A DNA stretch of 64,000 bases from an uncultured virus (IMG/VR IMGVR_UViG_3300033753_000202). Lineage: Duplodnaviria > Heunggongvirae > Uroviricota > Caudoviricetes. The translations under genes were made by a program, and so were the position numbers. Within the stretch, counting starts at the first letter, position 1, and each line of letters starts with the position of its first letter. Positions 1 to 64,000 of this stretch are shown one piece after another. The stretch lies in the IMG/VR virus record IMGVR_UViG_3300033753_000202, one strand, 5' to 3'. Under the pieces are notes generated by a model, which searched no databases, was not told where the DNA came from, and saw only the letters and a list, made by a program, of their open reading frames with translations.

Positions 1-10
1 GGTTATTGTT

Positions 11-493
11 ATGTTGGAGTCCGCTATCGGTGATATTACGCAAATTCGTGGGGTTGAGTACATCTGCAACGCGGCAAATCCGCAGGGGATCATGGGTGCT
101 GGTGTGGCTGGAGCCATCGCTCGGGCGGCGGGCGAACGTTTTCTTGAAGAGGTTCGTCGTGTCGCGCAGACTTACCGAGTGAAAGCGGGCGGTATCTATG
201 TTACTTCTGCTGGAAATCTCCCTTATCGTGGGATTATTCATTTGGCTTCTGTTCCTGCTCCCGGACGGCATTCGACTTACAGTATTGTGGAGTCGTGCTT
301 GAGGAATTTGGTGCAGTTTGCATCTTCTTCGCAGGCTACGGCGATAGCCCTGCCGCTTCTCGGCACGGGGGTAGGAAGACTTGATCCAGCACAGCTTAAG
401 TCGTTGTATCAGAAGTATTTGCAGGAGCATCGAACGCGCTTTGTGGTGGTCGAGTTTAACCCTGCTGTCTATGAAGCTTTTGTCAGGGGGTAG
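11..493 (+). CDS. Macrodomain (Appr-1-p processing / ADP-ribose-binding) protein
   Basis: Motifs GDIT, ICNAAN, GAGVAGAI, IIH and IALPLLGTGVG are typical of macrodomains; 160 aa. Confidence 0.9.
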   Translation: MLESAIGDITQIRGVEYICNAANPQGIMGAGVAGAIARAAGERFLEEVRRVAQTYRVKAGGIYVTSAGNLPYRGIIHLASVPAPGRHSTYSIVESCLRNLVQFASSSQATAIALPLLGTGVGRLDPAQLKSLYQKYLQEHRTRFVVVEFNPAVYEAFVRG

Positions 494-645
494 TGTTCGG
501 TGTATTTGGTCGAAGATTGTTTTGGTAGTCTGTATTTGACGGATACCAATACCCACGAGTGATTACGGAGTTGGTGGAACCTGCGATTTCCTTTAGCCAT
601 CACGACGGGTTTGGTACCTTACCAACTTAAAAGAGGTGATTCATT

Positions 646-1083
646 ATGGATCAGGTTTTGGCATTCGTTGAGGAGAATTATTTGTACTTGATGGGTATTT
701 TGCTTGTCGCTTTTATTCTTGTGCGTATTATCAAGAGTGTGATTAAGTGGCTTCTGTTGACGCTGATTGTATTCGGCGTGGCGGTATGGGGGTATGTGTA
801 TGTACCGGAGGAGGTACGGGAAGCACCGAAGGAAGTTGCTAAGACATTAGCGCAAGAACAGGTTGACAAAGTATTGGCATCCATTGTTACTGCAACGAAT
901 CTTGATGTTTCTCTCCGTGACGATGGGACGTACATTTTGTCTGCTCGGGTTTATTCTGAGGGTGTGGATATTTTGCTTACTGGGAAACCGGGTTCGGACA
1001 AGGCGACGTTGTATATTGGTAAGGTCAGCAAAGAAGTTAAATTGAGCAGTCAACTTATCAAGTTTATCCAGTCGAAGCTGTAA
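646..1083 (+). CDS. Hypothetical membrane protein (2 N-terminal TM helices)
   Basis: RBS AGAGGTG; two hydrophobic segments followed by a soluble domain. Confidence 0.75.
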   Translation: MDQVLAFVEENYLYLMGILLVAFILVRIIKSVIKWLLLTLIVFGVAVWGYVYVPEEVREAPKEVAKTLAQEQVDKVLASIVTATNLDVSLRDDGTYILSARVYSEGVDILLTGKPGSDKATLYIGKVSKEVKLSSQLIKFIQSKL

Positions 1084-1107
1084 CATTTCCACTAGGGGGT
1101 TATTTCT

Positions 1108-1983
1108 TTGCGGCAGTACTTGGATCATTGTCGGCAGATCCTTGAGCAGGGTGCGGTTCGTGGGGATCGAACGGGTACTGGTACGATCTCACACTTTGGT
1201 GGGCAAGTCGAGTATGACTTGTCGGAAGGTTTTCCGCTCATGACCACCAAGGACATGAGGGAAAACTTCCCACGCATCGTTCACGAGTTGGCGTGGTTTT
1301 TGAAGGGGGATACGCATCTTCGTTATCTTCTGCAAAACAACGTCAACATTTGGACACCTGATGCACATCGTGTGTATCGTCAGCGTGGTGGAACGCTTTC
1401 GCTTAAGGAGTTCAAGCAAAGGCTCCGGGAGGATGAACAGTTCCTTAATGACAATGGGGAACTCGGACCAGTTTATGGGAAGCAGTGGCGTTCGTGGGGT
1501 ATTGAAGGAATCGATCAACTCTCGATAGCTTTGGATCAGATCAAGAATGATCCTTCTTCTCGTCGCATTATCGTTTCGGCGTGGAATGTGTCCGATCTCG
1601 ATCAAATGGCACTCCCGCCGTGCCATGTTTTGTTCCAGTTCTATGTTCAAGATGGGCTTTTGTCTTGTAAGTTGTATCAACGGTCAGCAGACATGTTCTT
1701 GGGGGTACCGTTCAACATCGCGTCCTACGCGTTACTCGTCCATTTGATCGCGCATGTGACGGGGTTGAAGCCGGGTCGGTTCATTCACACCTTTGGTGAT
1801 GCTCATATTTATCTGAATCACGTCGAGCAAGTGAAAGAGCAACTGCGCCGCGAGCCTTTCCCGCTCCCGACGCTTCGTATCGATCCGCAACTTACTGATC
1901 TGTTTGACTTTGATCCTGCGTGGGTCACCCTTGAAAATTATAAGCACCACGGGGCGCTTCGTGGTGCTTTGTCGGTGGGTTGA
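1108..1983 (+). CDS. thyA: Thymidylate synthase
   Basis: [32 protein letters not shown], catalytic [36 protein letters not shown] start. Confidence 0.97.
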
Positions 1984-1996
1984 GAGCGCCCCCATT

Positions 1997-2025
1997 TGCT
2001 AGGGGTGCTTAAGCTACCCCTAGCA
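1997..2025 (+). terminator. Inverted repeat after thyA (possible terminator)
   Basis: TGCTAGGGGT-GCTTAAGCT-ACCCCTAGCA stem just after the stop codon; no strong U-tract. Confidence 0.45.
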
Positions 2026-2289
2026 TATGCGCTTCTTCGCGGAAATTTGCTAGTCCTACAGAAAAAAGTTTCCGTGGGCGTGACTTCATAATTACTTCAT
2101 AATCACTTTGAACCTACATCGCACCTACTTTGAGGGTTTGTCTCTCGAGGTAGGTGCTTGTCTTTTGACTGTAACAAAATTTTAAGCCATTTGGGACTTC
2201 GTCTTGACCGTTTCAGAGTCGAGTTGTAATATTTAGGTTGAACGTAGCTTAATTGTAGCTCATTCTTGCTTTGGGTGGTGATGTGTTAA

Positions 2290-2682
2290 GTGACGGAAGA
2301 ACCTCAACGAATGTCGCCTTCGCGAACCACACCGGAGCCTTTGGGCAGAATGAAACGCCATACTCGCTCTTGCATCTTAGCGCTCTTTCATCAGCATAAT
2401 GCACGAGAGGACTATGAAGAGCGGTATCCTTGTTACTGTGAGGAGTGCGAGGGTTGGGGGTACATCCACTACTTACCGGACATTGATTTGGACTTACTGC
2501 TCGATGCTCCAAAGGAAGTTTTCAATCGACAGTACTGTCGTTGTGTCCTTACTGGAAAATGTCCACGTTGTGGGACGGATGATGCTTTTGATCTAGAATC
2601 GGGTGACTGCGAGGAGTGCGGATTTGTTTTAGGTAAAACTGAAGGTATGCCCCTACGTCATCAGTGTAGTTGTTCAGAATAA
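2290..2682 (+). CDS. Cys-rich putative zinc-binding protein
   Basis: Several CxxC pairs (CEEC, CPRC, CEEC) plus CxC motifs; GTG start after GGTGGTG; candidate promoter TTGACC-17-TAATAT at 2204-2232. Confidence 0.65.
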   Translation: MTEEPQRMSPSRTTPEPLGRMKRHTRSCILALFHQHNAREDYEERYPCYCEECEGWGYIHYLPDIDLDLLLDAPKEVFNRQYCRCVLTGKCPRCGTDDAFDLESGDCEECGFVLGKTEGMPLRHQCSCSE

Positions 2683-2821
2683 AGATCGATAATCAGGGGT
2701 AGCGAAACTTTTTTCGGGAACCTCTGTTTTCTTTTCCTACCGAAAGAGGAATTGTACTTATAAAAGTACATTCTTCTTTCGGGAGGTGTGTCTTTTGAAG
2801 AAATCTCAAGGAGGCTTTAAC

Positions 2822-4927
2822 ATGGAAAACGTTGTTCTGTCTAAGGATGTTTTTTCTAAGGATGCACAGGATGTCTCAAAATTTCCGATGAATCGGGAGG
2901 AGCGCCGCATCCTTCGTAGGTTGGCAAGTAAAGATCCTGAACTGGCGGATTTGTTGTCGGATGTTTTGGACAAGCCTGCTGTGAAGCGCACGGTCGACCT
3001 TAAGACGCGGATTAAGCGCTTGTCGGATAAGTCTCGGGCTGTTAGGACGTTCTTTACTCTGTTGGAGTCGGAACAGACTGATGCAGGAATCTTGCTTAAA
3101 AAATCTGACGATGACGAGTCTTTGATTAATCCTTGCTTTACCGGACTTAATTTGACGCTGTTTTTCTCGGCATATATCGCGGCACATTTGGATGTTGTAT
3201 GTAATGATGACTCGTTGCGGGGGTACATCGACAACTATCCGGTAGTTAATGTAGAGACTTTGCCGCCCATGATGCCTATGCAGTATGAGACGATGGTTTC
3301 AACTATTAAACTATATTCCATTCTTCGGGAATGTGAAACCACTGGCAAGCGCGATTTCCTCAATCGTTTGGGGCATACGATGTTCCGCGAGGCATATAAG
3401 GAGGTTAAAAACCAACGCCCTACGGACAAGACGTTTCTTCTGCGGGAGACGCCCGGATTGACGATTTATCCGTCTGTGGTCAATATGTTCTTCTGTGCGT
3501 ACTATGTGGCATCTCAGGGGCATAAGTATTTTCGCGTCTTCTGTCAGACTTTGGAGGAAGCCGCATTGTTCATATCTCCTGAGTACAATAAGGCAGTTCG
3601 GGAGGAACGGCTCGATTCACTTAAGTCGGGCAGGAAGTTGGACTTTCTTGAAAATTTCAAGGAAGCTTTGTTTGAGACGTTACCGGAGTACGATTATCGG
3701 ATGTCGGAGTTGGAAAGTAAGTCTAAGGAAGATGGGGACTCCAAAGAAGCTTCTTCCTTCGGTTGCGCTTTTGGTAATTTTGCGTATAACCACTCTGTCT
3801 ATCGGGGGTATGAGTTCTATCGCCGGGTACGAAGAATGTTGTTGCAACCTGCGATATCGGAATTTGAGAGCAAGTTGAAGTCTCTCCCTAACGTGGAGAA
3901 GGTCGGCATGTCTTTGGTTAAGTCCAATTTGGATGATGACTTTGCCGCCTATGAAAAGCATTATGAGGAGGCAAAGAACGCCGCCGATAAGATTCGGAAC
4001 TCTCGCGGATCGTATATTTATCTGGCGTTCCAAGAATTGATGTCGCTCATGGAAGTTCGCTATTTGCCAGATTTGTTCACGCTCTCGATTGGTGATGAAA
4101 TCATTGAAAGGTTCGAGAAAGCGGTCAATTTGTTTTACTCCCGGTATGGGGGTCGTCGGTTCACCGAGCAGGAGTTGTTGATTTTCTTCTTTGCGATGAT
4201 CTATATTGATGTCGTCGCGGAGAACTATCTGCGGGTTGTGGATCGTAATCTTCGGATGGATGTGGGGGTGGATAATTATGCTATCCGCTATTATGACTTG
4301 AAGGATAAGGCGGAGGCTTTGGAGTCGGAGTTGGAGCAAAAGAATGCGGAAATTGAGGAACTCAAGCGGAAATTGGCTCAAGCTAATCAAACTGTCAATA
4401 GCTTGACTTCTCAATGCGAAGGTTTGCGGGAGGACAACCGCTCTCTTGCAAAGGAAGTTGCACAGCTTCAACGGGAACAGGAGTCTTTTGAACAGGAGAA
4501 GCAACGTCTTCATTCCAAGATTTCGTCGTTGGAGGCGGAGTTGGAGGAGTTCTATAATCAGGATAGCGAGGACACTGAGACTGAGGCTACTTACGAGGAG
4601 ATGATCGAATTCCTTCGCGGGCTTGATGTGGGTATTTATGGGGGTACTGTTAAGTGGGCGAATCGGGTTCGTGAGGTCTTTCCTAGCTTTCGCTGGTTGG
4701 AGTACACCAACAATGCACAGACGAACATCGACTACATAACGAGTCGGGATTTTGTCTTTATCAATCCGCGTACCATTGGGCATGCGATCTCGGAGCGGGT
4801 TCAACGCGAAGCGTCTAAGTATTGTCGGGTTCTCCATTGGAGCGGCGGTTTTGAGGAGTTTGTTAAGGAGATGTATATCTTCGCTAAGAAGAAGTTGCAG
4901 GAGGAACAGGAGGCACTCTCCAAGTAA
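2822..4927 (+). CDS. Coiled-coil protein with C-terminal DUF2325-like alpha/beta domain
   Basis: RBS AAGGAGG before ATG 2822; long heptad region (LESELEQKNAEIEELKRKL...); C-terminus GIYGG...FVFINPRTIGH resembles DUF2325. Confidence 0.7.
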   Translation: MENVVLSKDVFSKDAQDVSKFPMNREERRILRRLASKDPELADLLSDVLDKPAVKRTVDLKTRIKRLSDKSRAVRTFFTLLESEQTDAGILLKKSDDDESLINPCFTGLNLTLFFSAYIAAHLDVVCNDDSLRGYIDNYPVVNVETLPPMMPMQYETMVSTIKLYSILRECETTGKRDFLNRLGHTMFREAYKEVKNQRPTDKTFLLRETPGLTIYPSVVNMFFCAYYVASQGHKYFRVFCQTLEEAALFISPEYNKAVREERLDSLKSGRKLDFLENFKEALFETLPEYDYRMSELESKSKEDGDSKEASSFGCAFGNFAYNHSVYRGYEFYRRVRRMLLQPAISEFESKLKSLPNVEKVGMSLVKSNLDDDFAAYEKHYEEAKNAADKIRNSRGSYIYLAFQELMSLMEVRYLPDLFTLSIGDEIIERFEKAVNLFYSRYGGRRFTEQELLIFFFAMIYIDVVAENYLRVVDRNLRMDVGVDNYAIRYYDLKDKAEALESELEQKNAEIEELKRKLAQANQTVNSLTSQCEGLREDNRSLAKEVAQLQREQESFEQEKQRLHSKISSLEAELEEFYNQDSEDTETEATYEEMIEFLRGLDVGIYGGTVKWANRVREVFPSFRWLEYTNNAQTNIDYITSRDFVFINPRTIGHAISERVQREASKYCRVLHWSGGFEEFVKEMYIFAKKKLQEEQEALSK

Positions 4928-5185
4928 CCTTTCTGTGATACACGCCTTTCGCATCTTCGTTACGAGGAACTGTCCTTGTAACGGGGTATTTTTCTTTGAG
5001 ATACAAGTTGTTGGGTTGAACGTAATCTTTCCGAATCGGAACGTAAGTCTATTTTATATAGATGCTTCACTTTATGGTTACAGTAGAACCTACATTGGAC
5101 GGGGTACTGAGGTGGAAAGGAATGAGTAAGGTTCCAAGTGTACTCTAACCCAAGTAGTCTTAAGAGGAAAGGAGTTTGACCAGTT

Positions 5186-5512
5186 ATGACTACATCGCCC
5201 ATTTCGCCCATTTCTCGCCGCGAGGTGAAAATCGCTTTCAACAAGCCTATGCATCACCCGAGGCTAGGCACGTATTATCGCGGTTGTTTCACTCTTGATC
5301 TGGACACTTTTATAAAGTTCGTCGGCAACCCGACCAATCCGCGCTCGATGCTTTATCTCGATCCGCGAACCAAGCGAAACTGCTACTTCTTGAACTTGAT
5401 GGGGCGCGACGCTCTGGTGGACTTTTTGCGTAAGCACAACATTCCTTTTGATGCAAACCGGGCTTTCGCTCCCGGTGTCAATTACTACATCGACGTGCGT
5501 CTTCCCGAGTGA
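5186..5512 (+). CDS. Hypothetical protein
   Basis: RBS AAAGGAG; 108-aa ORF in the gene-dense orientation. Confidence 0.7.
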   Translation: MTTSPISPISRREVKIAFNKPMHHPRLGTYYRGCFTLDLDTFIKFVGNPTNPRSMLYLDPRTKRNCYFLNLMGRDALVDFLRKHNIPFDANRAFAPGVNYYIDVRLPE

Positions 5513-5655
5513 TTTCTTCACGGTTCCTTCACCGCCCTTTTCTCCTATATTCGCCCGTGTTCAAATTAGGACTTATCGCAAATCAACTTGATTGGCAGAT
5601 AAGTTCAAGTGTATAAGGGCTTAAAAATAGAGAGAAATAGGGCGGTGAATCATCT

Positions 5656-6726
5656 ATGCTTCGCATCATAGCCACTTTTCGTCCTCTCGGTTCCAAGCAG
5701 ATCGTGGGGTACCGTTTGTTAGTCGAGGACAAAGCTACCTTAGCCAAGCTTCACGCCAGCGGTTATCACTTCAGGGGTAATGTTGGCGACTTTTCGCCGC
5801 AGGAGACCTTTTTCTTGCTGGTCAACTTTGGTTCGATCAATGCCAGCGTCACCAATAATCAAATCACCTTGCTGGATGGTTCGATGGACTCACTCCCGAT
5901 TCTCAATCCGCGGACTGGACAATGCACGGACAATAACAATATTATCGTCCTTGCGTCGATTACCTATAATGATGAGGTCATCGGTTATCGGGTTTGCAAC
6001 TACACGGGAGCTATCGCGCAACTGCGCTATAACGACTTGCTGATCAAAGCCAAGCAAGGTTTCGCGAACGCCAAGATTGTTCATCGCGACGGGAAAGCCT
6101 TCATCTCCGCGATCAGGGGTACTTTCCCGACGACTCCGCTTCGCACCAAGGATGACCATATGCCCCGCGCTGTGATACCGACGGGTTCCAATTATCAAAC
6201 CCTTGTCGATACCACAAAACAGCGTGGAAACGTTAGCATCCCGGTGAAGTATTATGCTGACCCATCTCGCATGCAGACCGATCCGCCCACCAGCACAGGG
6301 CATGTGGCACTTACCGATAAGGGTGAAGTGGTCTATCGGTATCGAAACGAGCATGGTGACCCGAAGTTTGCGGTTGTTCCTAAGAACGTTTTTAATACCA
6401 ACTTCCAGTTGGGGGTAGCGTCGAGCGTCACTAAGCAGGAACTTGCCAACACCCCTCCCGCTCCGGCACCTACGCGAACCAACACCAAATACCTGCGAGA
6501 GGTCACGGAGAAGTATGGGATTGGTACCACCCTTAATGTTTTGTTCTTTCAAGGCACGACCAAACTTGCCGGACAGGTGCGCTTGAATCGCGGGGTAATC
6601 CATTTGCGGTATCGCCCAGATCCGAATGCGGATTTCAAGGTTGTGCAAGTCTCGGAGGCGGACTTCGATAAACACTTCCGTATTCAGGGGGTAATTCAGC
6701 CTAAGCCGCAACCGAAGTCATCTTAA
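5656..6726 (+). CDS. Hypothetical protein; N-terminal domain paralogous to 59875..60357
   Basis: RBS GGCGGTG; shares (G/R)YRLL, IVLxx..xxGYxVxxY and NAxxV motifs with the 59875 protein. Confidence 0.75.
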   Translation: MLRIIATFRPLGSKQIVGYRLLVEDKATLAKLHASGYHFRGNVGDFSPQETFFLLVNFGSINASVTNNQITLLDGSMDSLPILNPRTGQCTDNNNIIVLASITYNDEVIGYRVCNYTGAIAQLRYNDLLIKAKQGFANAKIVHRDGKAFISAIRGTFPTTPLRTKDDHMPRAVIPTGSNYQTLVDTTKQRGNVSIPVKYYADPSRMQTDPPTSTGHVALTDKGEVVYRYRNEHGDPKFAVVPKNVFNTNFQLGVASSVTKQELANTPPAPAPTRTNTKYLREVTEKYGIGTTLNVLFFQGTTKLAGQVRLNRGVIHLRYRPDPNADFKVVQVSEADFDKHFRIQGVIQPKPQPKSS

Positions 6727-6953
6727 CTTTCCTTCCCGCTTTCGTTTTCCACCCCTCCCCATAGTGAGAGGGGTATTTAAGCGAGTAAACGGAAAAACTA
6801 AGGACTAAGCGAGTAAAAATCTCGACTTTCCGTTGAACAGACTTTCTTTATACCGACTATTTTGTTATAATAGGCTCATCAGCTTCCGAGCTAACGCTAA
6901 GTTATACCGAGTCTCTCGGTTATAATAACGCTGTGTTGAAGGAGGGTTTTTCA

Positions 6954-8654
6954 TTGGACATGCATACCGTCTACTCGCTTCAGAATCGGAACTTCTCGGA
7001 TGCGGTTCTGGCGCTGGACACGCCGCTTGTTCGGCAACTTTCGCTTCTCGCACTCCAATCGGGGAAAGAGGGCAAAATTGTCAGCTTCATTATGCGTGAC
7101 CGCGTCTCGAATCGCGGGCAGGTTAAGGAGCGGGGTATTCCGGCATCGGAGAAATCGGTCGTCGATATCTGCAAGCTCACACCTTTGGTCGGGGGTAATG
7201 GCGCAAGCACGCTGTTGGAGGAGATCGCGCTTTATCGCGCCAATACCATCGACTTCAAGCCTTCGAAGGGCGACCTGCGTTCTTATGCGGAACTGTTGAT
7301 GGCGGACTATCTGATGTCCACTGCTCTCTGCTATGTTGAAATCGCCAAGCAGGGGCAAATCCGCGATAAGTTCTTGCTCACGCGCAACCCGCAAATCGCC
7401 GCTATTCTGGCGGACAAGTTGGAAAGCCCGCAGGACGTTGCCAAGTATCAACGCGCTCTTGTTACTTACACGTCGCACTACGAGAACAAGAAGCTCCCGT
7501 ATCTCAAAATCAACCTCAAGAAAACGGGCTTTTCGGTCACGGTTCCGAAAAATCCACTGGACTTTTTGTTCCCGATGAAGATCACACCGCTCTTTTTCAT
7601 CACCACTTTTGTGCAAGAGCTGACGAAGGTTCTGCAGGAGAAGATGGTGCGGGTCACCTTCATCAAGGATGACCTGTATGAGCGTGAGGTGGTCACCACC
7701 CTTAACCGGGAAATCCTCGGCAAGTATTATGACGAGGATTTCATTCAGGTTATGTTCTCGAATGTGGGCACCAACCTCGGTCGGGGGTATATCAAAGTGC
7801 CGGAACTCGGCAGTTCCAAGTATGACGCCACGGGCACCCGTTCCATTAATTTGGCGCGGATCACCAGTGTCAGTTTGGTCGAGACCTTCGACACGCGTTT
7901 CATCAACGTTGACCTGTCGAAAGTCCAGCCCGCTTTCGAGCATATGATCAGCACTTGCACTCGCCCAGAAATTCTGGCGAAGGTTTATCGGGATTTGACA
8001 GGGAATCCGCCGCAAAACACCAATATCTTCGTGTTGAAACAGCACTTGACGGACGAAATTCAGCGTATTGTGGCGGCAACCAGCACGACGGGTCTGCGTG
8101 ACTTGCATCTGTATATGATCGCCAATCCGAATATTTTCGTCAGCTATAACAGCGGGGTACCGATCAACTTCCTCAGTATGATTGACCCGGCTCTCGGTGC
8201 GGTGCATCAACCGACTGGCGCGTTTGGAGTGGATGCCCCGATTCGGACTGGGGGTAATCCAATCAAGCCGCCTTCGGACGTTCCGGTACCGCCGATGCCC
8301 GCGACCGCCGCACCGAATGCGGCTCCGATGTGGGGAGGGGTACCGCGCTCATTGGGTGGTGCGGCTCCAACGGGGCAGAAGCCTGTGAATCCGTATCAAG
8401 CACCGAAGCCCGCGCAAGCGGCTCCTGCGGCTTCGGGAGCGGCTTCGTTTGCGGTTCCTGCGGCGATGGCGGCAAATGCCCCTGTCACTCCGCAAAACGC
8501 GCAAGGCGCTCCAAGCGCCCCGTCCGATCCGTCTGTTCCGGCAACGCCACCATTCTCGCTTGGCGCGGCTCCGAAGTCGCTCGGAGGTGCAACGCCGACG
8601 ACAACGCAGGATGCGGCGAAAGCGGTATCCAAGCTCCCACCGCAGTTCCGTTGA
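6954..8654 (+). CDS. Hypothetical protein with WYL_2/Sm-like beta-barrel-like domain and Pro/Ala-rich tail; paralog of 8882..10576
   Basis: RBS AAGGAGG before TTG 6954 (alternative ATG 6960); VRVTFIKDDLYEREVVTTLN...TRSINLARITSV; low-complexity P/A C-terminus. Confidence 0.75.
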   Translation: MDMHTVYSLQNRNFSDAVLALDTPLVRQLSLLALQSGKEGKIVSFIMRDRVSNRGQVKERGIPASEKSVVDICKLTPLVGGNGASTLLEEIALYRANTIDFKPSKGDLRSYAELLMADYLMSTALCYVEIAKQGQIRDKFLLTRNPQIAAILADKLESPQDVAKYQRALVTYTSHYENKKLPYLKINLKKTGFSVTVPKNPLDFLFPMKITPLFFITTFVQELTKVLQEKMVRVTFIKDDLYEREVVTTLNREILGKYYDEDFIQVMFSNVGTNLGRGYIKVPELGSSKYDATGTRSINLARITSVSLVETFDTRFINVDLSKVQPAFEHMISTCTRPEILAKVYRDLTGNPPQNTNIFVLKQHLTDEIQRIVAATSTTGLRDLHLYMIANPNIFVSYNSGVPINFLSMIDPALGAVHQPTGAFGVDAPIRTGGNPIKPPSDVPVPPMPATAAPNAAPMWGGVPRSLGGAAPTGQKPVNPYQAPKPAQAAPAASGAASFAVPAAMAANAPVTPQNAQGAPSAPSDPSVPATPPFSLGAAPKSLGGATPTTTQDAAKAVSKLPPQFR

Positions 8655-8657
8655 TCG

Positions 8658-8682
8658 GAAGGGGAGGAAGACCCTCCCCTTC
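8658..8682 (+). terminator. Stem-loop, likely intrinsic terminator
   Basis: GAAGGGGAGG-AAGAC-CCTCCCCTTC immediately after the stop codon. Confidence 0.65.
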
Positions 8683-8881
8683 TTACCTAGTGGGGTACTG
8701 TCCATTTGGTACGGAAACATTCGAATCCTGTTTGTGTTACATTTTTCCCAATGGGACTTATCGTTTTGTTCACCCTTTATTTTTCGTCGCATAAGTTCTT
8801 GTACCCTAAGTATAGGGACTAGGACAAGCGGGTATACTCAAAGCAAGGAATTAAAATTTTCAGTAACGGAGGTTGTGTTTC

Positions 8882-54159: not shown

Positions 54160-54172
54160 TGAGGTGGTCATC

Positions 54173-55804
54173 ATGACGCAAACTAGAGGGAGTGCGATTT
54201 ATCAAGGAAAATACTATCAAGGTTCTCTGTCTGCGGAAACAGCGGACATCCTTCTGCGTCTCGCCAAGGTGGGGGAGGTGGAGTCGCTCCGGCATTGTAT
54301 TTACGATCTTCCGACGCATACTGTTTTGCAAATCAAGTATGAGGCAGAGCAGTATCTTAAGCAACACGGTACCCTTCAGGGGTACTCCAGTCGTTTCAAG
54401 GACAATATGCCTGTTGGTACCTTGCGCCCGGAGCAGACGATTGGTGTAGCGTATATGTACTATGCGGGTTCGCTTTTGCTTGGAGACGATGTAGGGGTAG
54501 GGAAAACGGTGCAAGCCGCCGGGTTGATTCGCTGTTGGGAAAAACGCTTTGAAGCTGAAGGTAAACCACCGTTTCGCGCTCTTTTTCTTGCGGAGAAGAG
54601 TTCTGCCGCGCAAATACAGGATAAATTCATCAAGTTCACTGGTGATTATGTGGACTTGATTGAGAGTGGTACCAAGGTGGAAGTGGAGAAGTTCTTCCAA
54701 CGTAACCCGCAGGGGTACTCTCATCACGTCGTGGCGACCCATGCCATTCTGCTTAATCCGGAATTTCTTGCGCGTGTTTCGAAGCATCCTTTTGACTTGA
54801 TCATTTTTGATGAAAGTAGTGCGCTTAAAAACTCGACGACGGATCTTTATGATGCGGCGAAAGCTCTGTTTAAGTTCATTCCGCGTCGCATTTTGCTCAA
54901 TGCTACGGTTTTTGAGACCAATCTGCGGGATATCTACAATCAACTGTATCTCGTTGACCCACTTTTGCTTCCTCCGGTAACGGAGTTTGAGCGTTTGTTT
55001 GTGGAGAAAAAGATGGGGCGGTTCCGTCGCTTGGAGAAAAAGGGGTACAAAAACGAGAGCTTTTTCAAAGAATCGATTTCTTTGCGTTATCTTGCCCGTA
55101 CCCGTGCCAATCTTGGGGCGAAGTTTGAGGACAATACGGTCAAGGTGGTCTTTTTACCTCTTTCGGCGGAGCAAAAGATGCTCATGAAGAAGACTAATCT
55201 CTATGACCTTGTCTCCAACTATCCTACGATGGTGAAACCCGATATCCTTTTTAATGAGGAGACTACGCCAAAGCTCAAGGCGGTACTTCATTTGGCGGAG
55301 AAAGTGGTTGGTCAGCAGGGGGAGCAACTGTTCATTTACTGTCGGTATGTTGAGGCACAGGAAGCACTAGCGGCTCGTCTTCGCGATGAGGGGTATCGGG
55401 TAGCGATCTTGAATGGGCGCAAAGGTGGAGGAAGCACTCGCGTCCGTGCTGAGATCTGTGCGGACTTCAATAATAAGTTGTACGATATTCTTATTTCTAA
55501 TGTTATTCGCGGTCTTGACCTTACCTCTTGTGACAACTGTATTCTTTATACGGTTGACCCTAATCCCGGCAAGCTTACTCAGGTTGAAGGGCGTATTATT
55601 CGAACCCTTGACGTTATCGGTAAAAACATCTGGATGCTTGTTATGATGGGGAAGGAGAAGCAACGCGTTGAGAAAGTTCTCAAGCTTCGTATTTCAGAGG
55701 CGCAAAAGCTCTCCAATCAGGGGCAAAGCCTGATTACGTCCTCGGTCGTGGATGGGTTAAACTTTGAACTCTGTGATTTGTTTGTTGAGGTAGGTGCGAC
55801 CTAA
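54173..55804 (+). CDS. SNF2-like SF2 helicase/translocase
   Basis: LRPEQ (Q motif), LLGDDVGVGKT, IIFDESS (variant DExH), LLNAT, RGLDL, QVEGRIIR. Confidence 0.85.
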   Translation: MTQTRGSAIYQGKYYQGSLSAETADILLRLAKVGEVESLRHCIYDLPTHTVLQIKYEAEQYLKQHGTLQGYSSRFKDNMPVGTLRPEQTIGVAYMYYAGSLLLGDDVGVGKTVQAAGLIRCWEKRFEAEGKPPFRALFLAEKSSAAQIQDKFIKFTGDYVDLIESGTKVEVEKFFQRNPQGYSHHVVATHAILLNPEFLARVSKHPFDLIIFDESSALKNSTTDLYDAAKALFKFIPRRILLNATVFETNLRDIYNQLYLVDPLLLPPVTEFERLFVEKKMGRFRRLEKKGYKNESFFKESISLRYLARTRANLGAKFEDNTVKVVFLPLSAEQKMLMKKTNLYDLVSNYPTMVKPDILFNEETTPKLKAVLHLAEKVVGQQGEQLFIYCRYVEAQEALAARLRDEGYRVAILNGRKGGGSTRVRAEICADFNNKLYDILISNVIRGLDLTSCDNCILYTVDPNPGKLTQVEGRIIRTLDVIGKNIWMLVMMGKEKQRVEKVLKLRISEAQKLSNQGQSLITSSVVDGLNFELCDLFVEVGAT

Positions 55805-57392: not shown

Positions 57393-59495
57393 ATGTCGGA
57401 TATGGACAAAATGCCGGAATCCGAATCCCCTCAAGTTCGAGGGGAGTATAACGACGATAGTATTTCGTCCAAGAAAGGCGCGGCACGGGTACGCGACCGG
57501 GTGTCCGTTATGTTCGGTACGGACAATGTCCACGGGGCGTTTCATAGCGTCATTGAGATCGTGGGCAACTCGATGGACGAAGCCCGTTCGGGATACGGCA
57601 ACAAGCTGATCGTCATCTACCATGAAGACGGTTCCGTTTCAGTGCGTGACTTCGGTCGCGGGGTACCAATGGGTTGGAACGAGAAGGAACAGCGTTACAA
57701 CTGGGACTTGGTCTTCAATGAGCTGTATGCTGGGGGTAAATATGCCGAAGAGGTTGAAGATGAAAAAGACCTTGCTTATGAGTTCCCGATGGGGCTTAAT
57801 GGTCTGGGTGCAACCTCGACGCAGTACACTTCGGCTTGGTGCAAGGTTATCTCGTACCGCGAAGGTAAAGCCTTCTTGAAGGAATTCAAGGAAGGTAACC
57901 CACTGGACATGGGACCGGCTATCGAACTGGAAAATCCCAATAACGAAACGGGTACGCTCGTTCATTGGAAGCCGGACGATAAGGTCTTCACCAGCACGGA
58001 CTTCACGCACGAGATGTTCATGCGCTTCTTGATTCCGCAAGCGCATCTGAACAAGGTGACGATTGAGTTCACCAACCTGCGCCACGGCAAGGGAACCGTT
58101 GTGATCGAAGGTCTGGGGCTGGAAAAGTACTTCCGGCAAACCATCGGTGAAGAGAATATCATCGCGATGTACTACGGTACGCGCAAAAACTCCGGTAAGG
58201 AAGGCACCAAGAAGTTCCGTACTAAGGCGGACGTTTATCTCGCCATTACGGAGGACTCCAAAAACCGCATGATGTTCTTCCATAATACCGGGGTAATGAA
58301 TCAAGGGGTTCATCCCACGGTTACGGACGCGGTGCTGTCGCGTTTCTTCTCGCGGCTTGGTCGTGAGCAAGGGCTGACTGTTCTGCCGATGGACTATAAG
58401 GATTATATCAGCGTGGCGATCAGTTCCTTCTCGAACACTGAGGTCACGTCCTTCATCGGTCAGACCAAGGACGGGGTAACCAACGCTTTTATCGCGGATA
58501 ACATTGAATACGTGCTGGCGGATATTCTGGAAACCGAATATGCGAAAAAGTCGCCAGATTTCATGTTCATGGTGGAGCGCGTACTCGCCGCCGCGCAAGC
58601 GCGTAAAGAAGCGAAAGAACGCGAAGCCCAACGCCGTAAGCTGGAACGTGCTTCGAAGTCCAGCCGTCGTCCGATTGATAAACCGGACACGCTGGTCGAC
58701 TGCATTTCGCGTGACCCGGAGAAGACCGAACTCTATATCACGGAAGGTAACTCGGCGGGTAGTTCTTGTAAAAAGGCGCGTGACGCTAATTACCAAGCCA
58801 TCCTCCCTCTCCGGGGTAAACCGCCGAATGGTCTGAAGTTATCGCTCGACAAGCTCCTTGAGTTGGAGGTTGTCAAGACCATCATCAAGGCGCTTGGTTG
58901 CGGGGTAGATGCTTCGGTTGATGGGGTTAGTACCTTTGATGAATCGAAGCTCCATTGGAGCAAAATCATCTTTGCAACCGATGCGGATATTGACGGTCAG
59001 CAAATTCGGGTTCTGCTGTTCACGCTGTTCCTGCGGCTGTTCCCGAAACTGTTGGAGAATGGTTATGTCTACGTTGTCGAGTCGCCGTTGTTTGAACTCG
59101 AAATCTCGGATGATCTGTCGTGGTTCGCTTATAGCATTGAGGAGCGCGACCAGCTCATGGCGAAGGCGGCGCGTGAGGGTATCAAGATTCGCAAGATTCA
59201 TCGTTCTAAGGGTCTTGGCGAAAATAACCCGGAAATGCTGTGGCATACGACTATGAACCCGGAAACTCGTCGTTTGGTGCAACTCAAGATCGATCCGAAG
59301 AATGAGACGGTTCGGAAGATCTCCGACATGCTGTTCGGCAACGACGTCAACAACGAGCGTCGGGATTATGTCTTCGATCTGCTCAGCGAGAAAATCTCGT
59401 TGGATATGGATTTGAAGCTTCTGGCTGAAACTGTTGAGGCGTTGGAGTCTGGTGATAATACGGAAACCACTCCGCTTGAACAGGAAGTTGGCTAA
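57393..59495 (+). CDS. Type IIA topoisomerase B subunit (GyrB/ParE-like)
   Basis: EIVGNSMDE, DFGRGVP, LYAGGKY, GLNGLG, TOPRIM EGNSA, PLRGK, TDADIDG, KGLGE; cannot distinguish gyrase from topo IV. Confidence 0.95.
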   Translation: MSDMDKMPESESPQVRGEYNDDSISSKKGAARVRDRVSVMFGTDNVHGAFHSVIEIVGNSMDEARSGYGNKLIVIYHEDGSVSVRDFGRGVPMGWNEKEQRYNWDLVFNELYAGGKYAEEVEDEKDLAYEFPMGLNGLGATSTQYTSAWCKVISYREGKAFLKEFKEGNPLDMGPAIELENPNNETGTLVHWKPDDKVFTSTDFTHEMFMRFLIPQAHLNKVTIEFTNLRHGKGTVVIEGLGLEKYFRQTIGEENIIAMYYGTRKNSGKEGTKKFRTKADVYLAITEDSKNRMMFFHNTGVMNQGVHPTVTDAVLSRFFSRLGREQGLTVLPMDYKDYISVAISSFSNTEVTSFIGQTKDGVTNAFIADNIEYVLADILETEYAKKSPDFMFMVERVLAAAQARKEAKEREAQRRKLERASKSSRRPIDKPDTLVDCISRDPEKTELYITEGNSAGSSCKKARDANYQAILPLRGKPPNGLKLSLDKLLELEVVKTIIKALGCGVDASVDGVSTFDESKLHWSKIIFATDADIDGQQIRVLLFTLFLRLFPKLLENGYVYVVESPLFELEISDDLSWFAYSIEERDQLMAKAAREGIKIRKIHRSKGLGENNPEMLWHTTMNPETRRLVQLKIDPKNETVRKISDMLFGNDVNNERRDYVFDLLSEKISLDMDLKLLAETVEALESGDNTETTPLEQEVG

Positions 59496-61012: not shown

Positions 61013-61041
61013 TTGACACTTGCAGAGGGGTTTATTAAAAT
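61013..61041 (+). promoter_or_regulatory. sigma-A-type promoter for topoisomerase A subunit
   Basis: TTGACA-17 bp-TAAAAT. Confidence 0.75.
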
Positions 61042-61190
61042 AGGAACATAATTCCGTATGGTGAAGTAAGTGTAGATTTTTACACTTACTTTACTTTTTG
61101 CCCAAACAGGGGTAAATTTTCGCAGTATGTGTTGCAGTGGTTTCATACTTAACATGGTTTTATCAATTTTACTTATAGGAGGTTGTTTCT

Positions 61191-63350
61191 GTGGCGAAAC
61201 GTCAGTATGACTCCAGTCCGACTACGGATCTGGATTTGGAGTGGTTGTCGCGGAACGATCCCGACACTTTGCAGGCACTCCAGTTCCTGATTCATTGGTA
61301 CTCGGAGTATGCTAAAGAGGTTGTTATCGACCGCGCCATCATCAATCTGGACGGTTTGAAGCCTGTCCAACGCCGCATCCTCTATGCGATGCATAAGAAG
61401 GGTTGGTACAATGAGCTTCACAAGAGCGCGAAGGTTGTCGGTGACATTATTTCCCTCCACCCGCACGGTGACGAGAGTATCTATCTCTCCATGACGCGGA
61501 TGGTGTCCAGCTCCTTGTACTTCAACTTCCCGATGCTGGACGGCAAGGGAGACTTGGGTTCGGTTTATTCCAAGAGCAAACCAGCCCATATGCGTTACAC
61601 TCAAGCTACGCTCAATGACAATGCGAAGCTGGCTTTCGAGGGCATGCGGGGTATTGACATGGTTCTCACTGAAAGCGGTGAGGATTATGAGCCTTCGCTT
61701 CTTCCGATAGCGGTTCCGCTTGGACTGCTGAACGCCAGCTCGGGTATCGCGGTCGGGATGGCTTCCAACATTCCGTCTTTCAACTTCCATGAGGTGTTGG
61801 AGGCGACGTTGGAGTATATCGAGACGGGCAACATCACCAAGCTCTTGGTACCGGACTACACGATGGGTTCCGATATTGTCATCTCGGAGAGCACGCTGAA
61901 GCGGCTCCGCGATGAGGGGAAAGGTTCCTTCAAGCTTCGGGCAAAATGGGTTGTTGATGGGAATACTATTCGGTTCAGCGAAATTCCGTATTACACCACC
62001 ATCGATGAAATCCTCAGCCAAATCGCCAAAGCCCAAATTCCGGGGGTATCGGACTACCGGGAGATCACGGACTTGCGTCGAGTTGGTATCGAGGTGGTTT
62101 GTTCCAGCAAGAATGCGGTTTCCACAGTGCTTCCGCAACTTCTGAAGAACACCAACCTGCAAATGACCGTTCCGGCGAATATGATGGTCATTGTTCGCGA
62201 CCGTCCGAAGTTGGTGGGTATCAAGGACTACATCCACGAGTGGTTGGAATTCCGCAAGGAAGTCGTGCGTCGGGAGCTTACGGCGGAACTTGAAGCGGTC
62301 AATTTTGAGATCCCGCGCTACGAACTGTTGGTGGATTTGCTTGGTACCGATTATAAGCGTGAGCGTTTCATGGCGACGTTGTCCAAGCAGGGTACGAAGG
62401 AAGCTCGCATGGTGCTTCGGGAGTTCTACCCGGACGCGGACAACGATATCTTCGACTGGATTCTCGGTATGCGGCTGTCCTCACTTGGTGGGGTAGGCAA
62501 CAAGGGCGCTCGTCTGGAGCGACTGTATGCGGCGCGGAAGCAACTGGAATATGACCTTGAGCACATTCCGCAGTATATCGCTAAGCAACTGCGCGAGTAC
62601 AATCAGAAATACAGCTTCCCACGCAAAACCACGGTTTCCGACGTCGACTACACCTTTGAACGTGAAGCTCCGGCGAAGGTTGAACTTCCGGCGATGCCTT
62701 GTATTGTGCAACTGGATGGGAAGTTCTTCAAACGCTACAACGTAGACGTCATCACGAAGAACTACGAAGGTATCCGTTGCTCGTCGAAGGACGTTATCTC
62801 GATGATCGACACGCACGGTCGACTCTTGCGTGTCAAGGTCGAAGACATCGAACCGGTCTCTGGAAATGGGCGTGGCGTTTATCTGCCGTCCTTCTTGGAG
62901 ATTCCCGACGATTTTGAAATCGTTGCGTGCGATGTCATCTCGGACAAAAAAGTAGGTTATGTATACTCCGATGGTTTCGTGTCCGTCTTGGATCTGTCCG
63001 AGTGGGCGGATAGCAAGCGCACCACCCGGATGACGCAGAATGGGGTATCTCCTGAAGCCTATAAGATCATCGCTGAGTTCCCGATTCCGAGCGAGTACTT
63101 GTACGTTGTCACGTCGAAGGGACGTTTTGGTTTCTTCACTGCCAATGAGTTCAAGCACAAGCATCGCACGGCTCGAACCAAGCTGATCAATCTTAAGCCG
63201 GGAGAAGATCTCACTTATGCGTTGCCTGTTTCCGGCGTGGATCTGCTGAAGTTGGTCAGCAACGCGGCGCGTTATATCGACAAGCTCGGGGCACTGGCGG
63301 CGGACGACACCTTCAATACGGAGTATCTCAACACACTGAGCGGGGCTTAA
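61191..63350 (+). CDS. Type IIA topoisomerase A subunit (GyrA/ParC-like)
   Basis: DGLKPVQRRILY, KSAKVVG, HPHGD, catalytic MRYT, LLNASSGIAVGMASNIP; shortened, degenerate C-terminal domain. Confidence 0.95.
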   Translation: MAKRQYDSSPTTDLDLEWLSRNDPDTLQALQFLIHWYSEYAKEVVIDRAIINLDGLKPVQRRILYAMHKKGWYNELHKSAKVVGDIISLHPHGDESIYLSMTRMVSSSLYFNFPMLDGKGDLGSVYSKSKPAHMRYTQATLNDNAKLAFEGMRGIDMVLTESGEDYEPSLLPIAVPLGLLNASSGIAVGMASNIPSFNFHEVLEATLEYIETGNITKLLVPDYTMGSDIVISESTLKRLRDEGKGSFKLRAKWVVDGNTIRFSEIPYYTTIDEILSQIAKAQIPGVSDYREITDLRRVGIEVVCSSKNAVSTVLPQLLKNTNLQMTVPANMMVIVRDRPKLVGIKDYIHEWLEFRKEVVRRELTAELEAVNFEIPRYELLVDLLGTDYKRERFMATLSKQGTKEARMVLREFYPDADNDIFDWILGMRLSSLGGVGNKGARLERLYAARKQLEYDLEHIPQYIAKQLREYNQKYSFPRKTTVSDVDYTFEREAPAKVELPAMPCIVQLDGKFFKRYNVDVITKNYEGIRCSSKDVISMIDTHGRLLRVKVEDIEPVSGNGRGVYLPSFLEIPDDFEIVACDVISDKKVGYVYSDGFVSVLDLSEWADSKRTTRMTQNGVSPEAYKIIAEFPIPSEYLYVVTSKGRFGFFTANEFKHKHRTARTKLINLKPGEDLTYALPVSGVDLLKLVSNAARYIDKLGALAADDTFNTEYLNTLSGA

Positions 63351-63376
63351 TGCCCCGCTTTTTGGGAGGTTCCGGT

Positions 63377-64000
63377 ATGAAAATCAGTTTGAGGTATGGG
63401 ACACCGCCAAGGGATTTCGAGGCATCGGTCGACTCTATTGTACCCAAGCCGATTGAGTTGGCGGTGGAGAACGTTGGGGATTTTCCGTCGCAAGCTCGGT
63501 CGTTGCAGTTTTATGTCCAGTCCCTGAAGTACCTCTTTCAAGGGGTAACCAACATGGTGACAGGGAATTTGCTCCGTCTTTCGGTCGAGAAGAGTTGGTT
63601 CGGTAAGATCGAACGTGACGGCTTCTCAATCAAGTGGGAACCCCGGATCGACAAGTTTTTCGTGGTGGTTTATTCGCTTGGTGACGCTAAGTTGGATGAG
63701 GACATGTACGTTGCCGATGTGGTGTATTCCACGAAAAGTGGTCGTATTGATACACAACCTGTATGGCTCAACTCGCTCTTGAACCAGAAGAGCAAAGCCG
63801 CCGCGATGGAGAAGGAGCATCTGACGGGCGCTATCGCCGCTGTCACTAAGCACATTGGCTCTTGCTCTTTGGTGTACACGAACGACAAGTTGACGGTCAT
63901 TGACCGTCGTCGGAAGAAGCAGATTCAAGTGGAAGACATTCCTTCGGATGAAGTGTACGTCTTGGTGCGTCTTATCTATCGGATTTTGAGTAAAGGACTG
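63377..64000 (+). CDS. Hypothetical protein, truncated by the window end
   Basis: RBS GGGAGG, ATG 63377, open for 208 codons to the edge (MKISLRYGTPPRDFEAS...). Confidence 0.75.
   Translation, partial: MKISLRYGTPPRDFEASVDSIVPKPIELAVENVGDFPSQARSLQFYVQSLKYLFQGVTNMVTGNLLRLSVEKSWFGKIERDGFSIKWEPRIDKFFVVVYSLGDAKLDEDMYVADVVYSTKSGRIDTQPVWLNSLLNQKSKAAAMEKEHLTGAIAAVTKHIGSCSLVYTNDKLTVIDRRRKKQIQVEDIPSDEVYVLVRLIYRILSKGL

Follow-up and report, generated by a model that had tools for sequence, protein, structure and literature searches.

The window analyzed here is a 64,000-nucleotide stretch of DNA (positions 1–64,000) of the IMG/VR record IMGVR_UViG_3300033753_000202, which is catalogued as an uncultured virus of the Caudoviricetes. 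This window most probably represents ~64 kb of a giant (at least 229–273 kb), plasmid-like element of Bacillota, which belongs to the type of the Bacillus thuringiensis plasmid pXO16, has its genes on one strand, and carries both replication and type IV secretion system (T4SS) machinery. As judged from its sequence, this is a new member of the pXO16 kind, distant from pXO16 itself and set apart by a higher GC content, its probable host, and the added genes thyA, nrdIEF, and tdk. A preliminary description of the window had proposed a giant Bacillota element that has replication functions of its own and spreads by conjugation rather than by virions, and the collinearity of the window with the conjugative plasmid pXO16 supports this proposal. 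We infer the circular state, the host, and the transfer of this particular element.

The relationship to pXO16 is seen in the VirB4-like transfer ATPase of the window (687 amino acids, HerA/DUF87 by Pfam; 44316–46379), which is the hallmark gene of the family. A tblastn search with this protein against 72,556 plasmids returned 21 records, all of them from Bacillus. The 10 best plasmid records are ~349.6-kb B. thuringiensis plasmids, with 39.8% identity over 90% of the query; these plasmids are copies of pXO16 (PMC6199540). The match to pXO16 itself has 39.7% identity over 625 amino acids (E 1e-132). The same query had no match in 50,697 phage records. DUF87 ATPases with ~25% identity over 74–81% of the query were also found on plasmids of Bacillus velezensis/amyloliquefaciens (~215 kb) and of the Bacillus subtilis group (143–146 kb), and these plasmids possibly constitute a further branch in cultured strains.

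A pXO16 copy, pBTHD789-1 (NC_018516.1, 349.6 kb), was compared as a whole with 51 window proteins. Matches at E≤1e-3 were observed for 14 of the 51 proteins, and 13 of these 14 are strictly collinear, running from 15.0 to 63.4 kb in the window and from 231.2 to 183.6 kb in the plasmid. The fourteenth match is weak (E 4e-4) and lies off the diagonal. The first part of the collinear series consists of two paralogues that match a single plasmid gene, followed by the clamp loader, a membrane protein, YdjM (30% identity), and a 312-amino acid membrane protein. The second part consists of a giant protein, a 342-amino acid protein, the VirB4-like and FtsK-type ATPases, an SNF2 helicase, and the GyrB-like and GyrA-like proteins. 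A chance order of 13 monotonic matches has a probability of about 1 in 13! and is not expected. The annotation of pXO16 has a corresponding order, namely AAA ATPase, metal-dependent hydrolase, 1,834-amino acid protein, VirB4-like protein, FtsK, DEAD/DEAH helicase, toprim protein, GyrA, and DnaB-like protein. The pXO16 stretch from the gene for the 1,834-amino acid protein to that for the DEAD/DEAH helicase contains 16 coding sequences (CDS) in 22.9 kb, including those for the VirB4-like and FtsK proteins.

pXO16 is described as conjugative and as promoting aggregation; it is 350 kb in size and has 434 CDS, for which databases contain very few homologues (PMC9673590). Its host is Bacillus thuringiensis sv. 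israelensis, in which conjugation has been shown experimentally, and its 25-kb transfer locus, called tip, contains 16 CDS that include two ATPases and a cell-wall hydrolase (PMC9673590). No relaxase or oriT has been identified for pXO16, and only nine near-identical copies are counted among 1,168 plasmids of the B. cereus group (PMC9673590). All CDS of pXO16 have one orientation and many paralogues are present; a phage-like nature was suspected, but plaques were never obtained (PMC6199540). The plasmid is transferred as single-stranded DNA, and the mechanism, like that of pCW3, is a distant relative of T4SSs (PMC6199540).

The genes of the window, like those of pXO16, lie on one strand. A Pfam scan covered 57 open reading frames (ORFs), 51 on the + strand and six rival ORFs on the − strand. 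Every gene recognized by Pfam is on the + strand, and no family was detected on any of the six long − strand rivals, which overlap + strand genes. A codon-usage log-odds score, trained on 12 recognized genes, was greater than 0 for all + strand candidates tested except 2290–2682 and did not exceed 0.003 in any of the 15 − strand rivals tested. It follows that every real gene of the window is on the same strand, and the window features given here by coordinates are on the + strand throughout. The + strand ORFs 2290–2682 (score −0.107) and 5186–5512 (score 0.037) are without homologues and are unlikely to be genes; without them, gaps of ~0.7–0.8 kb follow thyA and 2786–4927. The GC content of the 64 kb is 47.7%, and the GC skew is positive in 16 of 16 intervals of 4 kb.

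The preliminary description had listed thyA, tdk, nrdIEF, dnaX, a type IIA topoisomerase, SNF2, SprT, and a macrodomain gene on one strand, and Pfam, NCBIfam, and codon usage agree with this list. Its observation that these genes stand outside their usual chromosomal contexts also holds. Pfam shows no YbaB/RecR family downstream of dnaX and no DHFR family downstream of thyA, and two ORFs of unknown function separate the GyrB-like and GyrA/ParC-like genes. No chromosomal housekeeping context was detected by Pfam across the 64 kb, nor was an integrase or a recombinase. A tRNA search of the window found none, and no Rfam family reached its gathering score. Matches to PHROGs (E≤1e-5) were obtained for 7 of 49 window ORFs scanned. 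None of the 49 fell into the head/packaging, connector, tail, or lysis categories, and no terminase, portal, capsid, or tail gene was found among them, in keeping with the earlier remark that no virion genes are visible. The majority of the window ORFs have no recognizable family, and a permissive Pfam search (E≤1) of 23 ORFs of unknown function found nothing over any gathering score.

The window belongs to a much larger element, as had been suspected. Its proteins are 100% identical to those of a locus on a 228,941-bp contig and 91–100% identical to those of a locus on a 273,468-bp contig. Further relatives of the VirB4-like protein are numerous: of the 8,000 candidates that were scored, 423 reached E≤1e-10, and the 120 listed are 46–100% identical and occur on contigs of up to 410 kb. 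Searches for related loci used an alignment of 27 VirB4-like sequences as the query. Among species-representative genomes, three loci were found, in an Oscillospiraceae metagenome-assembled genome (MAG), in a Clostridia MAG, and on a 40.3-kb contig of Clostridioides difficile CD160. Metagenome contigs yielded 130 relatives, of which 79 loci were kept; for 16 of the 79, the contig is 200 kb or longer, with a maximum of 410,465 bp. In IMG/VR, 10 relatives were found on contigs of 26–284 kb, whereas a search there for an exact 42-base piece of the window gave no match.

The order of the giant protein, the proteins encoded at 39416, 40460, and 42819, the VirB4-like and FtsK-type ATPases, the protein encoded at 50145, SNF2, and the GyrB-like protein is kept over 92 loci. 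The VirB4-like gene is present in 92 of 92 loci and the GyrB-like gene in 16 of 92, the latter count being limited by the 10-kb flanks examined. The GC content of these loci ranges from 25 to 47%. In a rough neighbor-joining tree (BLOSUM distances, without support values), pXO16 is nested inside the diversity of the ATPase, and the window clusters with the C. difficile locus and three contigs, of 410, 388, and 324 kb. The CD160 contig, which is from a cultured isolate, has a compact transfer block of 25% GC at ~1–18000, with a VirB4-like protein (45% identity) and a homologue of the protein encoded at 50145 (47%). This block also holds homologues of 34563, 39416, 40460, 42819, and the FtsK-type ATPase; neither SNF2 nor topoisomerase genes were detected in its flank.

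The host of the window's branch is probably an aerobic, Paenibacillus/Brevibacillus-like bacillus, as suggested by the similarity of the ribonucleotide reductase subunit NrdE, the GC content of 47.7%, and the oxygen-dependent class Ib type of this reductase. The closest relatives of NrdE are on large metagenome contigs (59–76% identity), and the best cellular matches (55–57%) are from Xylanibacillus, Brevibacillus, Paenibacillus, and Cohnella. A 311,094-bp contig with an NrdE relative probably also carries a VirB4-like protein that is 57% identical to that of the window, since this protein is listed with a longest contig of equal length. Other branches of the family sit in Clostridia.

Five of the IMG/VR relatives (G001, G003, G005, G006, and G009; 179,785–284,026 bp) have terminal repeats and a CheckV completeness of 100%, and are listed as complete viruses. 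We analyzed G003 as a whole. It is 179,785 bp long, with a GC content of 35.7% and an exact 55-bp repeat at its ends, as expected of a circle opened by the assembler. Of its 191 ORFs (at least 60 amino acids), 189 are on one strand. Thirteen window proteins match G003 in collinear order, and 48 of the 191 ORFs match pXO16, largely in collinear order around the whole circle. The kinship therefore covers the whole replicon and goes beyond a transfer cassette. The GC skew has one sign in G003 (17 of 17 intervals of 10 kb) and in pXO16 (34 of 34). In both, the sign of the skew follows the single gene orientation, and there is no replichore switch, unlike in ordinary theta-replicating plasmids or in Inocles.

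None of the 191 G003 ORFs matched PHROGs of the head/packaging, connector, tail, or lysis categories. For replication, PHROGs recognized in G003 a DNA polymerase of 1,212 amino acids, a DnaB-like helicase, a primase and an NAD ligase that are both split, a clamp loader, and two topoisomerase II subunits. Other PHROGs matches are to RNase H, dUTPase, RecJ-like and SbcD-like nucleases, and ParM-like and ParB-like proteins, along with a Ser/Thr kinase, an anti-restriction protein, and an FtsK-like ATPase. Pfam searches of virus-catalogue records detected Terminase_6N in none of six, TerL_ATPase in none of five, and Phage_capsid in none of five. The preliminary description had advised a check for capsid, terminase, and portal genes; none was found in the window, the closed relatives searched have no terminase or capsid family, and G003 has no PHROG of a virion category.

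The region from 23 to 52 kb of the window is, as predicted from its sequence, largely an envelope apparatus. Hydropathy and signal analysis assigned signal peptides or transmembrane (TM) segments to the ORFs at 23356, 25755, 26797, 34563, 36814, 37927, and 38891, and lipobox-type signals to those at 37575, 38455, and 50145. Envelope proteins at the head of the block (23356–28995), identified by hydropathy, signal peptides, and the Pfam family YdjM, comprise a 298-amino acid membrane protein, two small ORFs, a YdjM-type protein, a 312-amino acid protein with a signal peptide or TM segments, and a 732-amino acid secreted or TM protein. The YdjM-type membrane hydrolase (25060–25710) was assigned by Pfam. 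The ORFs at 23356, 25060, and 25755 match pXO16 in order by tblastn.

The next gene (28932–34499) encodes a giant, 1,855-amino acid polytopic membrane protein. It has a predicted signal peptide and two blocks of ~4 TM helices each, at about residues 913–974 and 1531–1631, for a total of ~8 TM helices. This protein has 29% identity over 993 amino acids to the 1,834-amino acid protein of pXO16 and is present in 64 of 92 loci. No Pfam, NCBIfam, or PDB sequence match was found for it, and it is a candidate for the channel, with a VirB6/TcpH-like role. It is followed by six membrane-anchored or lipoprotein ORFs (34563–39403; 745, 254, 143, 165, 148, and 170 amino acids), assigned by N-terminal TM segments or lipobox-like signals, which are poorly conserved (2–7 of 92 loci). 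The first of these, 34563–36800, is at the position of a 710-amino acid gene product of pXO16 and has no tblastn match to pXO16.

The 342-amino acid protein encoded at 39416–40444 has two N-terminal TM helices and an α/β domain, occurs in 73 of 92 loci, and has 28.5% identity to its pXO16 counterpart. An AlphaFold 2 (AF2) model built with 42 relatives had a mean predicted local distance difference test (pLDDT) score of 81.7. The top Foldseek rows in the PDB for this model are the N-terminal region of R388 TrwK/VirB4 (E 0.04, probability 0.91), and the VIA comparison with VirB4 gave a Z of 6.9 (195 residues aligned, rmsd 5.5). These values are below threshold, and a VirB3-like or VirB4 N-terminal domain-like part is suggested as a lead only. 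The 781-amino acid cytoplasmic protein encoded at 40460–42805 begins with a small domain, continues with a disordered, low-complexity, acidic linker of ~370 amino acids, and ends in a ParA/MinD-like domain in which the Walker A motif is degenerate and lacks the usual lysine. It has Atlas feature matches of 0.92–0.97 to clusters with AAA_31/CbiA, as well as weak Pfam matches to AAA_14/CbiA/AAA_31 at residues 554–628, and is found in 47 of 92 loci. Its layout may be TadZ/CpaE-like, which we likewise treat as a lead only. A 497-amino acid coiled-coil protein with one TM segment (42819–44312; 24 of 92 loci) completes the series leading up to the VirB4-like ATPase.

A profile of the VirB4-like ATPase built from 27 relatives had a single PDB match, the VirB4 protein of Thermoanaerobacter (4ag5, E 6.7e-9). 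Matches of the ATPase to NCBIfam models of VirB4-like ATPases of integrative and conjugative elements (ICEs) are weak (34 and 30 bits) and far under the cut-offs. The ATPase encoded at 46536–48968 is of the FtsK/SpoIIIE type (Pfam PF01580), has N-terminal TM helices, and is present in 74 of 92 loci. Its PDB matches are to FtsK (4e-9), EccC, and 6o1w, a 'DNA translocase coupling protein' (5e-5), and it has 37.8% identity to the FtsK-domain protein of pXO16. It is a putative coupling protein or DNA translocase; no coupling protein family of the VirD4/TraG type was found in the window by Pfam or NCBIfam. Directly 3' of its gene, 48985–50133 encodes a very acidic 382-amino acid protein, with 35% Asp and Glu and ~5% Lys and Arg. 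The 572-amino acid protein encoded at 50145–51863 has a lipobox and occurs in 29 of 92 loci, with up to 55% identity. It was considered as a relaxase for its position and conservation, and was ruled out by its lipoprotein signal.

Genes for replication and nucleotide metabolism lie on both sides of this block. The DnaX-like clamp-loader ATPase (21739–23214; Pfam DNA_pol3_delta2, E 1.6e-33; phrog_5846, E 3.3e-54) has 41.6% identity to the 'AAA family ATPase' of pXO16. An SNF2 helicase (54164–55804; Pfam SNF2-rel_dom and Helicase_C), with 32.8% identity to the DEAD/DEAH helicase of pXO16, is present in 61 of 92 related loci and adjoins the transfer ATPases across relatives. The type IIA topoisomerase is split into a GyrB-like subunit (57393–59495) and a GyrA/ParC-like subunit (61191–63350), both recognized by Pfam, which have 35.6% and 29.9% identity, respectively, to the pXO16 pair in the same order. 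PHROG topoisomerase II families (465.7 and 312.4 bits) outscore the cellular GyrB/GyrA models. DnaX, GyrB, and GyrA/ParC are diverged versions, since their NCBIfam scores are below the cut-offs (215.8 versus 250, 394.6 versus 740, and 315.7 versus 654, respectively).

A class Ib (aerobic) ribonucleotide reductase is encoded by nrdI-nrdE-nrdF (16874–20557), with NrdI at 16874–17323, NrdE at 17268–19439, and NrdF at 19460–20557. All three were recognized by Pfam and exceed the curated NCBIfam cut-offs (TIGR00333, TIGR04170, and TIGR04171). None has a tblastn match in pBTHD789-1, and when the nrdE-dnaX region was searched against plasmids by blastn, the matches were confined to short stretches of nrdE/nrdF, with 66–75% identity, on unrelated plasmids. 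The three genes are flanked by two paralogues, 15041–15814 and 20816–21631, which have 36.7% identity over 251 amino acids to each other and both match by tblastn one pXO16 gene, at ~230.5–231.3 kb. This arrangement would fit an insertion of nrdIEF into a duplicated region of a backbone gene.

Thymidylate synthase (ThyA, 1108–1983) was identified by Pfam (E 4.6e-107) and by TIGR03284 (398 bits versus a cut-off of 108), and has no tblastn match in pBTHD789-1. Thymidine kinase (Tdk, 51885–52505; Pfam TK, E 1e-38) scored 178.9 with its best NCBIfam model, for which the cut-off is 195. It is followed by an SprT-like metalloprotease with a zinc ribbon (52577–53482; Pfam, E 2.1e-16). Neither Tdk nor the SprT-like protein has a tblastn match in pXO16; the pXO16 annotation holds a different SprT-like gene. 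At the start of the window, which cuts the gene, a Macro domain protein of the ADP-ribose binding/hydrolase type is encoded (2–493; Pfam PF01661, E 4.5e-26). All NCBIfam macro-domain models were under cut-off for this gene, and tblastn at E≤1e-3 found no counterpart in pBTHD789-1.

Two conserved backbone proteins of the window also have homologues in G003, in the same order. The 573-amino acid protein encoded at 6933–8654 has a weak match to WYL_2 and a long Pro/Ala-rich tail; an Atlas search with residues 1–430 gave uninformative scores of at most 0.77. The 567-amino acid protein encoded at 8873–10576 has 136 representative relatives. An AF2 model of its 564-amino acid form (8882–10576) had a pLDDT of 95.9 and a predicted template modeling (pTM) score of 0.90. 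Foldseek returned no match to this model at E≤0.001 in the PDB and BFVD, and the best VIA Z (6.4) was confined to Sm/WYL-like β-barrel and helical subdomains. This protein was considered as a hidden capsid, portal, or terminase protein and shows no such likeness in its predicted fold, although a missing match proves little; by the same token, the absent structure match is not proof of a new fold. A further protein (10795–12288) is extremely acidic, with 37% Asp and Glu and ~5% Lys and Arg. A DNA-mimic or anti-restriction role is conceivable for this protein and for the acidic protein encoded at 48985–50133.

The gene content is consistent with two kits. The phage-like replication and nucleotide kit would consist of the clamp loader, the split type IIA topoisomerase, SNF2, ThyA, NrdIEF, and Tdk, and the other, at 23–52 kb, would form a noncanonical Gram-positive type IV secretion apparatus. 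On the basis of the homology to pXO16, a channel across the thick cell wall may be assembled from the VirB4-like ATPase together with the envelope proteins, and a membrane-anchored FtsK-type hexamer would pump DNA, single-stranded in pXO16, through it into a contacted recipient. The adjacent SNF2 helicase and the topoisomerase may assist in unwinding and processing the DNA. With its own nucleotide-synthesis and replication genes, the element could establish itself in a new host with less reliance on host supply. We infer the conjugative function, the circular extrachromosomal state, and the roles of the proteins without a known family.

Several points weigh against assigning the window to a conjugative element of the pXO16 type. 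Identity to pXO16 is 24–42%, and 14 of 51 window proteins match. The pXO16 stretch from the 1,834-amino acid gene to the helicase gene is presumed to be the tip locus. A cell-wall hydrolase domain, such as would be expected of the conjugative hydrolase TipB, was not recognized in the window by Pfam, NCBIfam, or permissive Pfam. No relaxase family was found in the 51 window ORFs by Pfam or NCBIfam, and the two families sought in the five closed relatives, Rep_trans and MOBP Relaxase, were each present in none of the five; a defining part of a conjugation system is thus missing. IMG/VR files the 10 relatives as viruses, three of them as 'provirus'. Structural proteins may be present in unrecognizable form among the ORFs without a family, of which one has been folded. 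Lastly, 64 kb of the element were read, and virion genes, ribosomal genes, or integration junctions may lie elsewhere on the contig. One alternative is a jumbo phage or phage-plasmid whose virion module would be located beyond the window or have diverged past recognition, with the VirB4/FtsK-like ATPases acting in packaging or in another phage function. This alternative is unlikely. It would account for the replication genes scoring best against phage PHROGs, for the viral status of 10 relatives in IMG/VR (five with terminal repeats and CheckV 100%), and for a phage-like order of genes on one strand, most of them of unknown function. HerA/FtsK-class ATPases do package DNA in some viruses. However, the ATPases of the window are surrounded by membrane proteins and lipoproteins, the VirB4-like protein has no match in the 50,697 phage records, and the predicted fold of 8873–10576 has no capsid, portal, or terminase likeness. 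The 191 ORFs of G003 include none that match virion or lysis PHROGs, to which the Pfam counts for Terminase_6N (0 of 6), TerL_ATPase (0 of 5), and Phage_capsid (0 of 5) may be added. In addition, pXO16, the only characterized relative, transfers by cell contact and never gave plaques (PMC6199540).

The closed circles of 180–350 kb formed by pXO16 and at least five relatives argue against an element that is integrated in a chromosome, either as a giant ICE or as a genomic island, rather than replicating autonomously. Genes for partition proteins and for a full replisome are present in the complete relatives, and the window has no integrase, recombinase, tRNA, or housekeeping context. Integration is quite unlikely on these grounds, even though the 228,941- and 273,468-bp contigs of the window may not be circles, three of the 10 IMG/VR relatives are called 'provirus', and some relatives lie on MAG contigs or on a contig from a C. 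difficile isolate. It is very unlikely that the block of membrane proteins and ATPases serves in secretion or surface assembly (type VII-like, Tad-like, or a protein-exporting T4SS) on a non-transmissible megaplasmid. The FtsK-like ATPase does match EssC/EccC of type VII secretion as well, the protein encoded at 40460 resembles a ParA-like protein of the TadZ/CpaE type, no relaxase was found, and PLSDB types the pXO16 copies as 'non-mobilizable'. Yet no EsxA/WXG100 or EssB family was detected in the window by Pfam, and the profile of the 687-amino acid ATPase matched VirB4 and no other PDB entry. The homologous block of pXO16 presumably occupies the place of the experimentally defined transfer locus, a 25-kb region described as encoding two ATPases and a hydrolase (PMC9673590), and pXO16 transfers itself efficiently (PMC9673590, PMC6199540). 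Membership in the Hodors of the human gut or the Inocles of oral Streptococcus can be given hardly any credence. A similar size class, an affiliation with Bacillota, and misfiling as huge phages are shared, and the GC content of 47.7% is near the 47.1% of Hodor group 1; the backbone genes, the type of VirB4, the gene orientation, and the GC content of Inocles differ, and SecY and Rep_3 were each found in none of five closed relatives.

The assignment of the window to a pXO16-type element has a broader meaning. pXO16 is reported to be among the most efficient conjugative and mobilizing plasmids of Gram-positive bacteria and is described as unique (PMC9673590). It now appears to stand as the sole cultured member of a large family, a good part of which is filed as complete viruses. 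The literature search, from which most subscription journals were out of reach, found no paper on metagenomic relatives of pXO16. We consider the evidence evenly balanced as to whether pXO16 is the single cultured member of a large, ancient, unnamed family of one-strand, replisome-carrying conjugative elements of 180–410 kb, in which a jumbo-phage-like replicon may have swapped its virion module for a relaxase-less T4SS with a VirB4-like and an FtsK-type ATPase at its center. If so, this family would be spread through Bacilli and Clostridia of the gut, compost, and other habitats, with a gene order shared across the replicon, and the window's branch would have added aerobic nucleotide synthesis (nrdIEF, thyA, and tdk). 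With more than 100 diverged relatives, comparative genomics would offer a route to the relaxase and the oriT of pXO16. The relatives constitute a comparative data set for defining the conserved core of an unusual transfer system, including its DNA-processing enzyme. Giant plasmids would be systematically misfiled as huge phages, in parallel with the Hodors yet distinct from them, and a recurrent lifestyle in Bacillota would be that of giant replicons that transmit themselves and bring along a replisome and a dNTP supply of their own.

Among known systems, the Tcp system of Clostridium perfringens plasmid pCW3 is alike by description, being a Gram-positive T4SS variant that has an FtsK/SpoIIIE-type coupling ATPase instead of VirD4/TraG and no known classical relaxase. 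Its components include the FtsK-type coupling protein TcpA, the VirB4-like TcpF, and the VirB6-like TcpH. pCW3 is small and is not known to carry a replisome or nucleotide-metabolism genes of its own. The pXO16 literature itself draws the parallel with pCW3 (PMC6199540). As in jumbo phages of Bacillota, the window has one-directional gene blocks and its own clamp loader, type II topoisomerase, ribonucleotide reductase, ThyA, and Tdk, and the best profile matches of its replication genes are to phage families (phrog_28877, phrog_543, phrog_551, and phrog_5846). Unlike jumbo phages, neither the window nor G003 has terminase, portal, capsid, tail, or lysis genes, and a T4SS-like envelope apparatus is present instead.

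The Hodors are conjugative megaplasmids of more than 300 kb from human-gut Bacillota that virus-calling pipelines file as huge phages; genes of DNA metabolism are part of their content, and neither their VirB6 nor their relaxase is easily recognized (PMC12934698). The tables of the Hodor preprint list Rep_3, ParA/B, SecY/E/G, sortases, a protein of more than 7,300 amino acids, ThyX, NrdD, topoisomerase III, a TraC-type VirB4 of 855/897 amino acids, and a coupling protein of the VirD4/TraG type, and have no rows with 'gyrase', 'thymidine kinase', or 'FtsK'; the GC content of group 1 is given as 47.1% (PMC12934698). The preprint makes no mention of pXO16 (PMC12934698). In the window, the VirB4-like protein has 687 amino acids and the coupling ATPase is of the FtsK type, unlike in Hodors, and none of the Hodor backbone features (Rep_3, SecY/E/G, sortases, and the protein of more than 7,300 amino acids) was found by Pfam; ThyX, NrdD, and topoisomerase III were likewise not seen there. 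The five closed relatives also lack SecY and Rep_3 (0 of 5 each), and there is no overlap between the 12 IMG/VR identifiers of the Hodor table and the 10 IMG/VR relatives of the window. Inocles, from oral Streptococcus, are described as having two replichores with a switch in gene orientation, the marker InoC (Replic_Relax), and a GC content of 24–32%. The one-strand layout and single-sign skew of the window, G003, and pXO16 are unlike those of Inocles, and PF13814, the Replic_Relax family of InoC, was not found in the window by Pfam.

In comparison with pXO16, the window differs in several respects. Its GC content is 47.7% as opposed to 33.4%, its thyA, nrdIEF, and tdk gave no match in pXO16, and the very large surface/aggregation proteins annotated in pXO16 have no equivalent in the window. 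The host lineage probably differs as well, and transfer is experimentally known for pXO16 alone. The two are alike in having genes on one strand, a collinear block running from the clamp loader through YdjM, the giant protein, and the VirB4-like and FtsK-type ATPases to SNF2 and the topoisomerase, a size of hundreds of kilobases, a majority of genes without an assigned function, and no recognizable relaxase. The element to which the window belongs is thus of the pXO16 kind and is neither a Hodor nor an Inocle.

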